This document shows, piece by piece, positions 21,820 to 27,860 of a DNA stretch of 64,000 nucleotides (position 1 is the first letter of the stretch; the number at the start of each line of letters is the position of its first letter). Below the pieces are notes generated by a model. The model was not told the origin of the DNA. It did not search any database and worked only from the letters and a program-made list of their open reading frames with translations. Made by a program: the position numbers and the translations under genes. The stretch comes from Chthoniobacteraceae bacterium (lineage in GTDB: Bacteria > Verrucomicrobiota > Verrucomicrobiia > Chthoniobacterales > Chthoniobacteraceae): the NCBI GenBank assembly GCA_031409655.1, contig JANNXQ010000195.1, positions 1 to 64,000 on the forward strand, read 5' to 3'.

Positions 21820-22761
21820 ATGTTTCGCGCGATCTTCATGGGCACGGGCGAGATCGGCCTGCCCGCGTTCCGCTGGCTGCTCGGCGCGAGCGACGTCGTG
21901 GCCGTGGTGACCCAGCCGGATAAGCCAGTGGGCCGCCGGCAGGAGTTGCAGGCTTCGGCGATCAAGCAACTCGCGATCGAACGCGGCGTGCCCGTTTTGC
22001 AACCCGTGAAGATGCGCGCTCCCGAAGCCGTCGCGGAACTCGTGGCGCTGCGTGCGGACATGATCGTGGTGATGGCTTACGGCCAGATTTTACCCCGCCC
22101 GGTGCTCGCTGCGGCGCGCATCGCCTGCCTGAATTTGCACGCGTCGCTGCTCCCGCGCTGGCGCGGTGCGGCGCCGATCCAGGCGGCGATCGAAGCTGGC
22201 GATGCGGTGAGCGGGATCACCGTCATGCACATGGCGGAAGGGCTCGATACCGGCGACATGGTCCTCGCGAAAGTGACAAAGCTGCGCCGTCGGGAGACCG
22301 GTGGTTCCTTGCACGATCGCCTCGCCGGACTCGCCGCCGAAGCGCTTGCGGCAGCGTGGACGATGATCGTCGCGGGAAATGCGCCGCGCCTTCCGCAGGA
22401 GGAAAGGCTCGCCACGCACGCCGGAAAACTTTCGCGCGAACATGGCGAGATCGACTGGCGCGCGCCGCAGGTGACGATCGATCGACGCATCCGCGCGATG
22501 AATCCGTGGCCCGCCGCGCACACCTGGCTGCCGACTCCGGAAGGGCCGCGCAAGCTGAAAGTCTTCTCGTGCATCCAGCATCGGCGCGAGAGCGGGGCGC
22601 CGGGAGTGGTGCTGGCGGCGGACCGGCGCGGGTTGCTCGTCGCGGCTGGGGAGGGCGCGATTTTGCTGCGCGACATCCAGCTCGAAGGCAAGCGGCGGAT
22701 GCCGACGCGGGACTTCCTGCTCGGCCATCCTGTGACGCCGGGGACGTTGCTCGGCAAATGA
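21820..22761 (+). CDS. fmt: Methionyl-tRNA formyltransferase
   Basis: IFMGT, VVTQPDKPVGR, AYGQIL, NLHASLLPRWRGAAPIQ, GLDTGD. Confidence 0.96.
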   Translation: MFRAIFMGTGEIGLPAFRWLLGASDVVAVVTQPDKPVGRRQELQASAIKQLAIERGVPVLQPVKMRAPEAVAELVALRADMIVVMAYGQILPRPVLAAARIACLNLHASLLPRWRGAAPIQAAIEAGDAVSGITVMHMAEGLDTGDMVLAKVTKLRRRETGGSLHDRLAGLAAEALAAAWTMIVAGNAPRLPQEERLATHAGKLSREHGEIDWRAPQVTIDRRIRAMNPWPAAHTWLPTPEGPRKLKVFSCIQHRRESGAPGVVLAADRRGLLVAAGEGAILLRDIQLEGKRRMPTRDFLLGHPVTPGTLLGK

Positions 22762-23366
22762 GCCGCGTGCAGGCCACTCTCGACCGGCATGTCGCGGAGA
22801 TCCGCGCCTGCACCCGGTGTCCGAAGATGCATCGCCCCGCCGTGTCTGGCGGCGCCGTGGTGAGCCGCGTGATCTCGGTCGGTCAGGCTCCTGGGGTCAA
22901 GGAGCCGGTGCTCGGGCGTCCCTTTGCGTGGACGGCGGGGAAGACGCTCTTCGGCTGGTTTCAGCGGGCGTGCGGGATGACCGAAGCGGAGTTTCGGGCG
23001 ACGATCTACATGGCCGCGGTCTGTCGCTGTTTCCCTGGGAAGACGAAGGTCGGTGGAGATCGCGTGCCGGACCCGACCGAGATCGCGACGTGCCGCGGCT
23101 GGCTCGATGCGGAGATCGCCCTGCTGCGTCCCGCACTGGTGCTCCCGATTGGCAAACTCGCGATCCAACAATTTCTCCCCGCCGACAAACTCACGGAGAT
23201 CATCGGGAAAAAATTCACCGCCAAGGCCGGACGCCACACCTTCGACATCGTGCCGCTGCCGCATCCGTCCGGGGCGTCACCATGGCACCGCATGGAACCC
23301 GGACTCACGCTGCTCGACGAGGCGCTGAAACTCATTGTGCGCCACCCCGCATGGCCGGTTCGATGA
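22758..23366 (+). CDS. Uracil-DNA glycosylase superfamily protein (Fe-S type Cys pattern)
   Basis: CTRC, GQAPG, CRCFPG, LPHPSGAS; ATG overlaps the fmt stop. Confidence 0.88.
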   Translation: MSRVQATLDRHVAEIRACTRCPKMHRPAVSGGAVVSRVISVGQAPGVKEPVLGRPFAWTAGKTLFGWFQRACGMTEAEFRATIYMAAVCRCFPGKTKVGGDRVPDPTEIATCRGWLDAEIALLRPALVLPIGKLAIQQFLPADKLTEIIGKKFTAKAGRHTFDIVPLPHPSGASPWHRMEPGLTLLDEALKLIVRHPAWPVR

Positions 23367-24943: not shown

Positions 24944-26095
24944 ATGAATGCCAAAGCCCTCAGTTTCCTCGTCGTCCCTGCAGCCATCGTCGGCGGATAC
25001 GCCCTCTGGCCGAAGCACGCTCCGGTAGCGCCCGCCGCGCCAGTTGCCCCGCCCACTGAGCGGGCGGTGACCGAAGCCGCGCCCGCGAACCATGGGCAGC
25101 CATCGGCGGAAGTTTACGAACTCATGGACGCGATCGCCGCGAACAAGGTGAAGGTCGAGTGCAAGGGGAACGGACGCGACCGGCTCTGGTTGACGATCGC
25201 CAACCAGACCAGCACGCAGATCGCGCTGAAATTTCCCGTCGGACAGATGTTTGAAAGCGAGCGCAATGCCGTGGTGGTGGTGCGGGCGGAAGGCAAGGAA
25301 CTCGCGGCGCGCGGCGCGCTCGAGGTGAGCCTCCAGACCGCCGCGACACGCTCGCTGAACAAAGTGGCCGAGGTCGTCTATCGCCCGACCTACAACGACG
25401 TCCCGAAGATCGAACTCTTCCTCACCTACGTGCAGGATCACCTCGAGCTTTCGCCCGGCGCAATCCAGACCGCGATCCTTGCTCTCGCGGAAAATCTCCC
25501 CGTGAGCGCCCTTGCGAAATTCACGCCGACGGGGGGCGCCATCCCGAGCCGCTTTAATACCGATGCTTTTCGGGTCGAGACTTTCGACCTCATCCAGGCG
25601 CTCGCCGCGCTCCGCGAGATCGGGGTGAAAGATCGCGACCTCGCGTTGACCATCGATCCGCAGCTCAAGATCGAAGCCATGATCGAGCCGCTCTGCCGCG
25701 CCGCCGCGATGCGCTACTACGGCATCGCCGCCGAGACGGAGTGGGAGTACTGGCGTGCGGAATTGCTGGAAGGCGACCCGAGCACGCGGCACTACGCACT
25801 CTTCGGCATCGCCCGCTTTTATCCCGAGATCGCGCTGGAAATGCTCCCGCGCTGGGTGCGGGAAAAGAAGACGAACCCGGCCTATCGCCTCGCGGCGATT
25901 CAGGCGCTCGCCGATACCCAGCGGACGGAAGCACTCACCATGCTGGAGTCGCTCGTCGATGAACTCGGCGCGGACACCGATCTCGGCAAAGCCGCAGCGG
26001 CGGCCGCGAAGTATCTCGATTCGCATCTCGCGAAGGTCGCGGCGATCCGCACGAAGGTGGTCTTCCGCTCGGCGAGCGGGCCCGCCGGATTTTAA
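24944..26095 (+). CDS. Membrane-anchored hypothetical protein with C-terminal HEAT-like repeats
   Basis: N-terminal TM, Ig-like middle, TRHYALFGIA and YRLAAIQALA repeats. Confidence 0.72.
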   Translation: MNAKALSFLVVPAAIVGGYALWPKHAPVAPAAPVAPPTERAVTEAAPANHGQPSAEVYELMDAIAANKVKVECKGNGRDRLWLTIANQTSTQIALKFPVGQMFESERNAVVVVRAEGKELAARGALEVSLQTAATRSLNKVAEVVYRPTYNDVPKIELFLTYVQDHLELSPGAIQTAILALAENLPVSALAKFTPTGGAIPSRFNTDAFRVETFDLIQALAALREIGVKDRDLALTIDPQLKIEAMIEPLCRAAAMRYYGIAAETEWEYWRAELLEGDPSTRHYALFGIARFYPEIALEMLPRWVREKKTNPAYRLAAIQALADTQRTEALTMLESLVDELGADTDLGKAAAAAAKYLDSHLAKVAAIRTKVVFRSASGPAGF

Positions 26096-26171: not shown

Positions 26172-26223
26172 GTTTGCACTCTTAGAGTTGTTCTCGGGCT
26201 CAAGCGTTGGATAGGTTCGCGCT

Positions 26224-27084
26224 ATGTTGCGCGATTCTTCATGGCTTGCCCCCCGCATCGATCTCCGGCGTTTTTTCGCCGCGCTTGTCGCGATCAGCAT
26301 TGGGATTTTCACCACGCCATCCAGGGCGGCGGATACGGAGTACAAGCGCATCCGCATCGAGGCTTGGGAAAAGGCGGTCACCGCGCGCCTGCCGCTGACG
26401 GACGTGAGTGGCGCCGCGCGGGTGAAACGCATAGAGAGCGCCGGCGTCGGCGTCCCGGTCGCGCCGACCAAGACGCAGCTCGATGAGACCGCCTTCCTCG
26501 AATGGCAGATCAGCTACGACACCCCGAGTTTGCAGCATGAGTCGGCGGTTCCGGGTATCCGCTTCGAGCGCGATGGCCGCACGAAATACGGCTGCGAACT
26601 TTCCAAGCTCCTCGCTGAATCGCGCCGCCTCGGATTGGTGAGCGAAGCGCAGCTCCGGGCCTTGCGGAAAGAATTGGACACGCTGCGCGAGCACACGCTG
26701 GAGGAGAAGGAAAAGCTCGCGGTGGCTCCTGATAGCGAGGCCGCGGCGACGGACTTGCCGGAAGGTTTCGCGCGCTTCGTCGAGAAGGTGCCCGTCTTTC
26801 AAAAAATCACGCCGGACGGACGCATCGAGATCCGGCTCAAGCAAAAGCAGCGCGCCGTGGGCTATCAGGCAATGGTCTATGCGTGCGTGCCGCTGGCCCG
26901 CTGGAGCTTGCCGGATGGCGCGCCGCGCGGTCCCGGCGCTGCGCGCACGAAGGAAACCGTGACCGTGCATTTCACCACGGAGAATGTGGGCTACCTGCTC
27001 GATCTGGTGCGCGCCTTTGGCCTGGCGTCCCGCGAGCACAACGACGATCTCGGCAAGATCCTCGACGCCATCCTCGCCTTGTGA
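26224..27084 (+). CDS. R.PabI-family (HALFPIPE) restriction DNA glycosylase with an N-terminal signal peptide
   Basis: Motifs LPLT, RVKR, GVPVA, LEWQISYD, ELSKLL, EIRLKQKQRAVGYQAMVYACVP and FGLASREHNDD; residues 15-36 RRFFAALVAISIGIFTTPSRAA. Confidence 0.85.
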   Translation: MLRDSSWLAPRIDLRRFFAALVAISIGIFTTPSRAADTEYKRIRIEAWEKAVTARLPLTDVSGAARVKRIESAGVGVPVAPTKTQLDETAFLEWQISYDTPSLQHESAVPGIRFERDGRTKYGCELSKLLAESRRLGLVSEAQLRALRKELDTLREHTLEEKEKLAVAPDSEAAATDLPEGFARFVEKVPVFQKITPDGRIEIRLKQKQRAVGYQAMVYACVPLARWSLPDGAPRGPGAARTKETVTVHFTTENVGYLLDLVRAFGLASREHNDDLGKILDAILAL

Positions 27085-27860
27085 ACGGCGAGATCGTGCC
27101 GGGCGACGCCATCGCCGAATTGCAGAATCTCCCCGACGACTCCGCGCAGCTCGTCTTCGCTGATCCGCCCTATTTCCAGGTGCTCGACGAAACGTGGGAC
27201 CAGCAGTGGACCGATGCCCGCGCCTATCTCGACTGGACGATGCAGTGGCTCGCCGAGGGGATGCGGGTGCTGCGCCGGGACGGCGTGCTCTACTGCTGCG
27301 GCCAGCTCGGCAAGCGCGAGCACACCTTCCTCCACCTGATGAGCGAAGCCACGCGCCGCTGGCAATTTCACGATCTCATCACCTGGGATCGCGTGGTCGG
27401 CTACAATGTGCGGCGCGACAGTTTCACGCCCGCCACCGAACTCCTGCTGGTCTTGCGGAAAAGCGATACGGTGAAATTTCACAAGGACGCCGTCCGTGAG
27501 CCCTACGACGCCGCGACCATCGCCACTTACCTGAAGGACCCGCGCTACAAAGACCGCGAAGCGCGCGCCGAGTATCTGCAGGCGGGAAAATTTGCGACGA
27601 ACCTCTGGCGCATCCCGAGCCTCAAAGGCACCTCCAAGGAGAAGTGCGGCCACCCTTCGCAAAAGCCTCTCGCCTTGCTCGATCGCGTGATCCGCTCCGC
27701 CACCGATCCTGGCGATCTCGTCGTCGATCCTTTCCTCGGCTCCGGCACCACCGCGCTCGCCGCGGAGCGCACTGGACGCCGCTGGTTCGGGATCGAGAGC
27801 GACCCGAAATATTGCGCCATGGCGATCGAGCGCCTGGAGGCGGAAGCAGCGCTGCTCTAG
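27081..27860 (+). CDS. Beta-class N6-adenine (or N4-cytosine) DNA methyltransferase
   Basis: DPPY precedes HPSQKP and DPFLGSGTT; GTG start overlaps the upstream TGA (GTGA). Confidence 0.93.
   Translation: MNGEIVPGDAIAELQNLPDDSAQLVFADPPYFQVLDETWDQQWTDARAYLDWTMQWLAEGMRVLRRDGVLYCCGQLGKREHTFLHLMSEATRRWQFHDLITWDRVVGYNVRRDSFTPATELLLVLRKSDTVKFHKDAVREPYDAATIATYLKDPRYKDREARAEYLQAGKFATNLWRIPSLKGTSKEKCGHPSQKPLALLDRVIRSATDPGDLVVDPFLGSGTTALAAERTGRRWFGIESDPKYCAMAIERLEAEAALL

Follow-up and report, generated by a model that had tools for sequence, protein, structure and literature searches.

A conserved clade of R.PabI-family DNA glycosylases in Verrucomicrobiota with a predicted export signal and, mostly, no partner methyltransferase

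Restriction enzymes are commonly regarded as cytoplasmic and methyltransferase-dependent. The R.PabI family of restriction glycosylases fits this view: in the accessible text of a 2023 review its members are described as always adjoining a methyltransferase gene, and the family as lacking secretion features (PMC10273834), while the known M.PabI homologues are of the gamma type (PMC4615327, in the part available). In Helicobacter pylori, deletion of the methylase is lethal when the cytoplasmic restriction enzyme is active (PMC2588503), and the genome has over 50-fold fewer GTAC sites than expected, many of them in rRNA (PMC2588503, PMC5388411). Here we describe a 64,000-nucleotide stretch of a Chthoniobacteraceae genome (contig JANNXQ010000195.1, positions 1 to 64,000; hereafter the window) with a gene pair encoding an R.PabI-family protein, P0001, and a DNA methyltransferase, P0002. 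Unlike the known R.PabI systems, P0001 and its relatives have an export signal, a beta-class partner or mostly none, stable housekeeping loci and a home in Verrucomicrobiota. As judged from sequence, this clade of exported restriction glycosylases, which largely dispenses with methylation, is a conserved and apparently undescribed variant.

The features of P0001 are:
26224..27084, + strand: R.PabI/HALFPIPE-family predicted GTAC adenine DNA glycosylase (P0001) with export signal, 286 amino acids (PF09522, PDB, PADLOC, AlphaFold/Foldseek)
26224..26328, + strand: signal peptide of the Sec type (residues 1-35), with cleavage predicted between S-R-A and A-D (own heuristic)
26515..26517, + strand: Tyr98 (in EWQISY), equivalent of catalytic R.PabI Tyr68 (PDB alignment; roles from the available part of PMC7806768)
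26584..26586, + strand: Lys121, equivalent of R.CcoLI Lys71, the apurinic/apyrimidinic (AP) lyase lysine, in a mesophile-type insertion (7cfa alignment; numbering from the same part of PMC7806768)
27037..27048, + strand: His272-x-x-Asp275, equivalents of catalytic R.PabI His211/Asp214 (PDB alignment; roles as for Tyr98)

Sequence, fold and residues all place P0001 in the R.PabI family. It scores 39.7 bits against PF09522 (curated cut-off 25), matches R.PabI (2dvy, E 3.5e-19) and R.CcoLI (7cfa, E 7.2e-19) in the PDB, and matches the PADLOC REase_II model (E 1.4e-22). The AlphaFold model has a predicted local distance difference test (pLDDT) score of 91.8, its top Foldseek match is R.PabI (E 1.3e-17, template modelling score 0.86 on the target), and the rows listed with E <0.001 are exclusively R.PabI or R.CcoLI. 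An earlier note, made from the letters alone, had proposed the family, the HALFPIPE fold and the catalytic role of the EWQISY and HxxD motifs, and had named the Foldseek comparison as a check; all of this is borne out. A homologue search found 628 sequences, of which 120 were listed and underlie the residue and leader counts below. Tyr98, Lys121, His272 and Asp275 are each conserved in 120/120, and His272 is retained in 79 of the 80 locus translations discussed below. AP lyase activity is probable for P0001. Nine of the ten GTAC-reading residues listed for R.CcoLI are kept, the equivalent of Lys17 being Ala64; this position is Lys in 84 homologues, Pro in 26 and Ala in 10. P0001 thus resembles R.PabI and R.CcoLI, as well as R.HpyAXII, in fold, triad, lyase lysine, insertion and base reading. 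The clade proteins are only about 45-55% identical, yet the catalytic and most recognition residues are invariant.

The leader is kept in the open reading frame by start-codon constraints, as the earlier note had argued. An in-frame TAG lies at 26212, the candidate starts are ATG 26224 and TTG 26227, and the next ATG/GTG/TTG is GTG 26404 at codon 61, beyond the LPLT strand. The earlier alternative starts are all non-canonical, and one of them, ATC 26257, would retain the hydrophobic stretch. The 35-residue leader has an n-region with a net charge of +2 and a 17-residue uncharged run. With a heuristic that calls an uncharged 11-residue stretch of mean hydropathy >=1.5 upstream of the core, a hydrophobic leader was found in 115 of the 120 homologues; by eye, the five misses are one that scores 1.3, three truncated gene calls and one mis-anchored pattern. 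The leader sequences vary between homologues, the type is constant, and all are joined to a conserved mature start, A-D-(T/A)-(E/D)-Y-K. Around the cleavage point, position -3 is Ala in 85, -1 is Ala/Gly/Cys in 117, +1 is Ala in 110 and +2 is Asp in 102. In the 107 homologues with a usable Met, the leader has a median length of 26 and an h-run of 16, with a positive n-region in 96. A mis-called start or chance hydrophobic stretch is contradicted by this conservation and by the fixed boundary between leader and mature protein.

By its n- and h-regions and its A-x-A/G/C site, scored heuristically, the leader is a signal of the Sec/signal peptidase I-like type, from which cleavage and a location outside the cytoplasm are predicted. 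The export signal claimed in the earlier note therefore stands in its hydrophobic run and cleavage-like site, and falls in its twin Arg. RR occurs in 11/120 leaders, RRxF in 1/120 and S/T-RRxF in 0/120, and the close relatives P0003 and P0004 (84-86% identical to the query) have a single Arg at the twin-Arg position; export by the Tat (twin-arginine translocation) route was rejected, the S/T-R-R-x-F-L-K motif not being conserved among the 120. A lipoprotein cleaved by signal peptidase II was also rejected, since a lipobox-like pattern occurs in only 5/120 and the +1 residue is mostly Ala, as given above.

The signal-bearing proteins form a clade, whose existence the earlier note had left to be looked for. 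A quick midpoint-rooted tree was made from 83 selected rows; in it, a branch with a Shimodaira-Hasegawa-like approximate likelihood ratio test (SH-aLRT) value of 98 separates the 41 signal-bearing rows from the 42 signal-less ones. A profile search across 1.84 billion representatives gave 375 matches; among the 126 listed new ones of at least 190 amino acids, six have the clade leader and the others mostly start at the core. Relatives are encoded on 255 genome stretches, of which 80 were kept for locus counts, almost all from Verrucomicrobiota; the hosts are a large group of bacteria from soil and fresh water. Some record labels of relatives (Klebsiella, Akkermansia, Bifidobacteriaceae) look wrong. 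Carriage is patchy, with 4 of 151 genomes in the query genome's order and 18 of 201 in that of genome G453; another genome, G340, belongs to the family of the query genome. The recurrent neighbour genes in related loci are housekeeping ones: aconitase, RsmB, rpsL/rpsG and a tetratricopeptide repeat protein. Signal-less PabI genes also occur in other Verrucomicrobiota (L082-L087, from G073, G152, G229, G262, G272 and G276). Five of these have an upstream NPPY gamma methylase, and L082 ends before that position; they widen the known range of the canonical PabI system.

The methyltransferase features are:
27081..27860, + strand: beta-class amino-DNA methyltransferase (P0002), 259 amino acids, with a 4-bp GTGA overlap with the glycosylase stop (PF01555)
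27162-27173, + strand: DPPY motif of P0002, residues 28-31
27726-27746, + strand: DPFLGSG motif of P0002

P0002 scores 166 bits against PF01555, its closest solved structure is M.RsrI (E 4e-37), and it has no leader; the DPPY motif, overlap and leaderless N-terminus are as the earlier note had them. Since the partner is a beta-class PF01555 protein and not a gamma M.PabI homologue, P0001/P0002 is not a canonical PabI restriction-modification (R-M) system. P0002 is probably the cognate GTAC methylase in the query genome, because the arrangement recurs in a relative without the signal: at L123 in G599 a P0002 orthologue (58% identical) overlaps a signal-less R.PabI in the same way, and it is the only such orthologue in the 201 genomes of that order. 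The predicted specificity is also suggested by P0002 orthologues in 6 of 23 GTAC-poor genomes without the glycosylase, where they are enriched, and by pairing of P0002-type methylases in GTAC-poor DNA with a second restriction-like family (family X, below). Against a cognate role, 0/8 short metagenome loci of the methylase had a restriction gene nearby. P0002 has no match among phage sequences, and its plasmid matches reach only 36% identity (E 1e-30).

Pairing is not the rule in the clade. An adjacent P0002 orthologue occurs in only 2 of the 80 loci, L002 (intact, same overlap) and L061 (broken); L059 carries an unrelated DNA methyltransferase near the glycosylase. In the other 77 loci no DNA methyltransferase was found with ten methylase queries and motif scans, 62 of the 80 having at least 1.5 kb on both sides of the glycosylase gene. 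In 54 carrier genomes (the query genome plus 53 genomes of the 80 loci, hand-chosen to include all GTAC-keeping loci), a P0002 orthologue is present in six, namely the query genome G000 and G444, broken in G314 and G443, and unlinked in G473 and G478; the other 48 have none. For the gamma partner from L083, no full-length match was found in any of the 54, and in G439 the PF01555 matches are all broken. The compartment-split R-M system of the earlier note would fit the query genome, with its probably cognate cytoplasmic methylase; that such a pair defines the system is not supported, and R-M pairing as a rule of the clade was rejected. The loss runs opposite to that in H. pylori, where the restriction gene decays and the methylase is kept. 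Other pairs of an unrelated beta-class methylase and a restriction-like gene occur in carrier genomes (L059:299-2300, L099, L105).

Like the R.PabI family, the clade shows GTAC avoidance in its long-term hosts. The 80 loci hold 100 GTAC against 1577 expected, both strands, and 71 have none at all. For whole genomes we used the ratio of CGTACC to a reversed-word control and called values <0.015 purged. The 54 carriers have a median ratio of 0.004, with 41 <0.015, against a median of 0.18 for 20 non-carriers. In the order of G453, the ratio is <0.015 in 13/17 carriers against 3/182 non-carriers (medians 0.004 and 0.21); this sample is even, with G599 set apart and one unpublished genome dropped, 13 of its 17 carriers overlap the 54, and four were classed as signal-type from profile coverage alone. 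In 200 kb each, G439 has 0 of 222 expected GTAC and G453 has 0 of 242; two non-carriers from the query family have 82 (179 expected) and 138 (218 expected). By rough gene calls, a Tyr codon after a G-ending codon is TAT in 118/118 and 127/127 cases, and elsewhere in the same genomes TAC:TAT is 633:375 and 663:216. This switch points to selection on the GTAC site; a purely mutational purge by adenine loss would leave it unexplained and was rejected.

The GTAC sites that survive in purged genomes lie in the rRNA operon (13 in G439, 10 in G472), the sarcin-ricin loop included, and further ones on islands. At L165-L169 (G439) and L172-L174 the remaining sites are in rRNA and in apparent recent islands, which carry integrase-like genes and long enzyme genes; the word thus acts as a map of acquired DNA. 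The query genome keeps GTAC, at an observed/expected value of 0.40 and a ratio of 0.128, close to G444 (0.128) and G599 (0.11). One of the 40 sites in the window lies in the glycosylase gene itself:
26340..26343, strand not applicable: GTAC site (site count)

Our preferred reading, to which we give a probability of roughly 0.55, is that a GTAC glycosylase/AP lyase, exported by Sec, damages double-stranded DNA within the envelope on its way in, with self DNA safe by compartment and by methylation or site loss. The unfolded precursor would cross the inner membrane via Sec and lose its leader to signal peptidase, and the HALFPIPE dimer would fold in the periplasm or be released further out, with no need of metal, ATP or S-adenosylmethionine. 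The substrate of the enzyme would be double-stranded DNA in passage through the envelope, such as phage genomes and transforming environmental DNA, from which it would excise adenine at unmethylated GTAC. The glycosylase probably nicks its target, and host AP endonucleases would cut abasic sites after entry; after R.PabI treatment, supercoiled plasmid loses its transforming ability, base excision by itself being enough for this, and host AP endonucleases promote restriction (PMC5388411, in the part available). Protection would come first from the compartment, and second from methylation by the adjacent beta-class methylase in the query genome, so that GTAC is kept, or in most relatives from chromosomal GTAC loss, after which the methylase would be dispensable. 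The proposed order is an ancestral pair, gain of the signal, and repeated loss of the methylase. Leakage might account for the selection on the site, as might a filter by which kin DNA without sites is favoured. Both the GTAC activity and the incoming-DNA target of the exported enzyme are predictions. ComEC, a common gene giving weak support, was found in 5/5 carriers tested; Ku was not found in the query genome, which at 95% completeness is uninformative. G314 has normal GTAC, an intact-looking glycosylase gene and a broken methylase; if the enzyme has no access to the chromosome, a cell could tolerate this state, as well as the rRNA survivors in purged genomes and the broken PF01555 genes of G439.

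Several points weigh against this reading. The hydrophobicity threshold by itself also passes 15/121 methylase N-termini, so that it is the n-h-c order, together with the fixed boundary, that carries the argument for a signal. The query subclade has Ala64 in place of one guanine-reading Lys, and the GTAC level of the query genome is within the non-carrier range. Carrier genomes hold other N6/N4 methylases elsewhere, so unlinked protection is possible, and G473 and G478 hold the methylase unlinked yet are purged. Some carriers keep sites: G459, G463 and G471 (about 0.20), G314 (0.49), G443 (0.07) and G477 (0.69). The first three (L018, L023, L040) form one subclade with an exported-type gene, intact residues and no linked methylase, and no shared protective methylase was evident in them; in all three glycosylases Gly replaces Ala211 and residue 191 is Arg. 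The G477 locus, L050, has no GTAC (32 expected) in a GTAC-rich bin, so that its contig is probably mis-binned, and GTAC content could act as a binning check in Verrucomicrobiota. Related genomes are not independent, and carrier counts therefore overstate significance. The H. pylori purge arose with a cytoplasmic pair, so the purge may predate export. In addition, 17/146 non-carriers in the query order have a ratio <0.015; no PabI homologue was found in the 23 GTAC-poor non-carrier genomes with A1, PF09522 or the broad profile A2, and G306 has no PabI remnant near polX. Phage DNA may also traverse the periplasm shielded.

The completeness of the purge in coding DNA and its selected character are most easily explained if the chromosome meets the enzyme. 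This would fit an ordinary restriction enzyme whose leader lowers the cytoplasmic dose, most of the protein being exported or bound to the membrane, with a retained fraction that restricts DNA at or just inside the inner membrane and a steady low exposure of the chromosome driving the purge. The intact, overlapped methylases of the query genome and G444 agree with it, and the membrane-bound anti-phage nuclease SNIPE, which tells self from non-self by envelope location (PMC13190303; review PMC12904381, each in the part available), shows that tethering is able to replace marking (PMC13190303). However, the topology of SNIPE is the opposite one: it is a GIY-YIG nuclease with an N-out anchor and a cytoplasmic nuclease domain (PMC13190303), whereas P0001 is a sequence-specific glycosylase whose leader is N-in and of the cleavable type. 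The positive n-regions (96/107) and conserved A-x-A/G/C site favour cleaved export, and unavoidable rRNA sites persist in genomes without a recognisable partner methylase. We therefore consider a leashed cytoplasmic enzyme unlikely.

Decayed methylases next to or away from the glycosylase gene, and the signal-less restriction gene with a beta methylase at L123, might indicate that export freed the host from its addiction to an old cytoplasmic pair that had caused the purge. The exported protein would then do little in defence now, or salvage adenine from outside DNA. Purging is known from cytoplasmic systems (PMC2588503, PMC5388411). On the other hand, catalytic and recognition residues are invariant across these diverged proteins, in the order of G453 the purge state goes with present carriage, a four-base-specific enzyme would be a poor scavenger, and deleting a gene is simpler than exporting its product. 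A detoxified or repurposed relic is very improbable on this evidence.

GTAC-poor genomes without glycosylase, family X or beta methylase are G243, G317, G369, G385 and G393 (genus g7), G306, G323, G373, G310, G337, G348, G527, G677 and G558. They may have lost the system, may have a third enzyme, or may be under outside pressure. The last would be expected if the glycosylase were a secreted weapon that poisons competitor or other extracellular DNA, with a GTAC-free genome or methylation as immunity and geneless neighbours, such as genus g7, purging under the same pressure; an extracellular role has been speculated for the family (PMC10273834). Lost systems account for these genomes equally well. 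The glycosylase has no receptor-binding or translocation domain, the recurrent neighbour clusters have no immunity or secretion gene, and the best 150 matches of an all-length profile search include no long signal-bearing member, a search in which fused forms were not specifically sought. The weapon is accordingly a distinctly doubtful explanation.

A second enzyme family may have followed the route that we propose for the glycosylase:
L115:199-843, L194/L202 (G356), L203-L210 and L213: family X, restriction-like, 211-214 amino acids (PADLOC REase_II)

The REase_II model matches 52/52 family X members. The structure model has a pLDDT of 91.3, and the top VIA-align rows are PD-(D/E)xK restriction nucleases, with weak scores (best Z 7.2); there was no Pfam, NCBIfam or PDB sequence match and no Foldseek match at E <0.001. 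Family X is encoded in 9 of the 23 GTAC-poor non-carriers, and among 27 other genomes only two fragments were seen; it was not found in ten purged non-carriers searched with its own profile. Two of the nine genomes have a signal-less X adjoining a methylase, the partners of signal-less forms being a beta methylase of the P0002 type or one that is gamma-like. By eye, in the other seven a hydrophobic leader directly precedes the conserved first residues of X, and the locus lacks a methylase; five of these seven genomes belong to one genus, and in five the beta methylase lies elsewhere. Family X is thus a candidate second exported GTAC enzyme. In Verrucomicrobiota, two unrelated folds of GTAC enzymes (HALFPIPE and PD-(D/E)xK-like) may each have gained a Sec signal as an envelope filter, with self given by compartment and a purged genome rather than by methylation, so that kin DNA would pass and foreign DNA would be poisoned before the cytoplasm; for this wider proposal the odds fall somewhat short of even. 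A phage-borne origin was rejected, as viral contigs have no relatives of the glycosylase or of family X.

Other enzymes share single properties with the clade. EndA, Dns and Nuc are non-specific periplasmic or secreted nucleases, exported by Sec, whose damage to DNA occurs beyond the cytoplasm and may reduce its uptake; unlike the clade, they are not known to be sequence-specific or methylation-sensitive, or to leave a site purge. PacI is solitary, has no cognate methyltransferase, and its host is protected by the absence of sites (PMC3488263, in the part available). PacI belongs to the HNH enzymes and its site has 8 bp, whereas the clade has an export signal and a 4-bp site, expected thousands of times, that has been removed with some copies remaining. 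As to PacI-like protection, the query genome has methylase and sites, and relatives have a site-free core with sites kept in rRNA and islands, where unlinked methylases may also protect. No signal-bearing or solitary PabI homologue was found described in the literature searched, a search to which most subscription journals and REBASE were external, and none that is signal-bearing or verrucomicrobial appears in the accessible parts of PMC4615327 (text and supplements), PMC12366791, PMC4081073, PMC4687349 and PMC3482391.

If our reading is true, this would be restriction without modification, with self and non-self set by location and genome composition, and two unrelated enzyme families appear to share the same route. 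Periplasmic attack on incoming DNA, the speculated extracellular role and the drivers of extreme word avoidance become testable. The query genome, with methylase and sites, offers a natural control and the member that is easiest to clone.

Upstream of P0001 in the window are a family-4 uracil-DNA-glycosylase-like gene (22761-23366) and a gene for a HEAT-repeat protein whose N-terminus has a hydrophobic stretch (24944-26095), neither of which is among the recurrent neighbour clusters of related loci. A six-pair hairpin at 26217-26234 places the glycosylase start codon in its loop and might damp translation; such hairpins have 3 matches against 1.5 expected, possibly by chance. The query genome also strongly avoids GTNNAC (GTCGAC 0.05, GTAGAC/GTCTAC 0.11, GTGCAC 0.13) and CAGCTG (0.09). 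The avoidance of these words is milder in related loci, and it suggests further long-lived R-M specificities.

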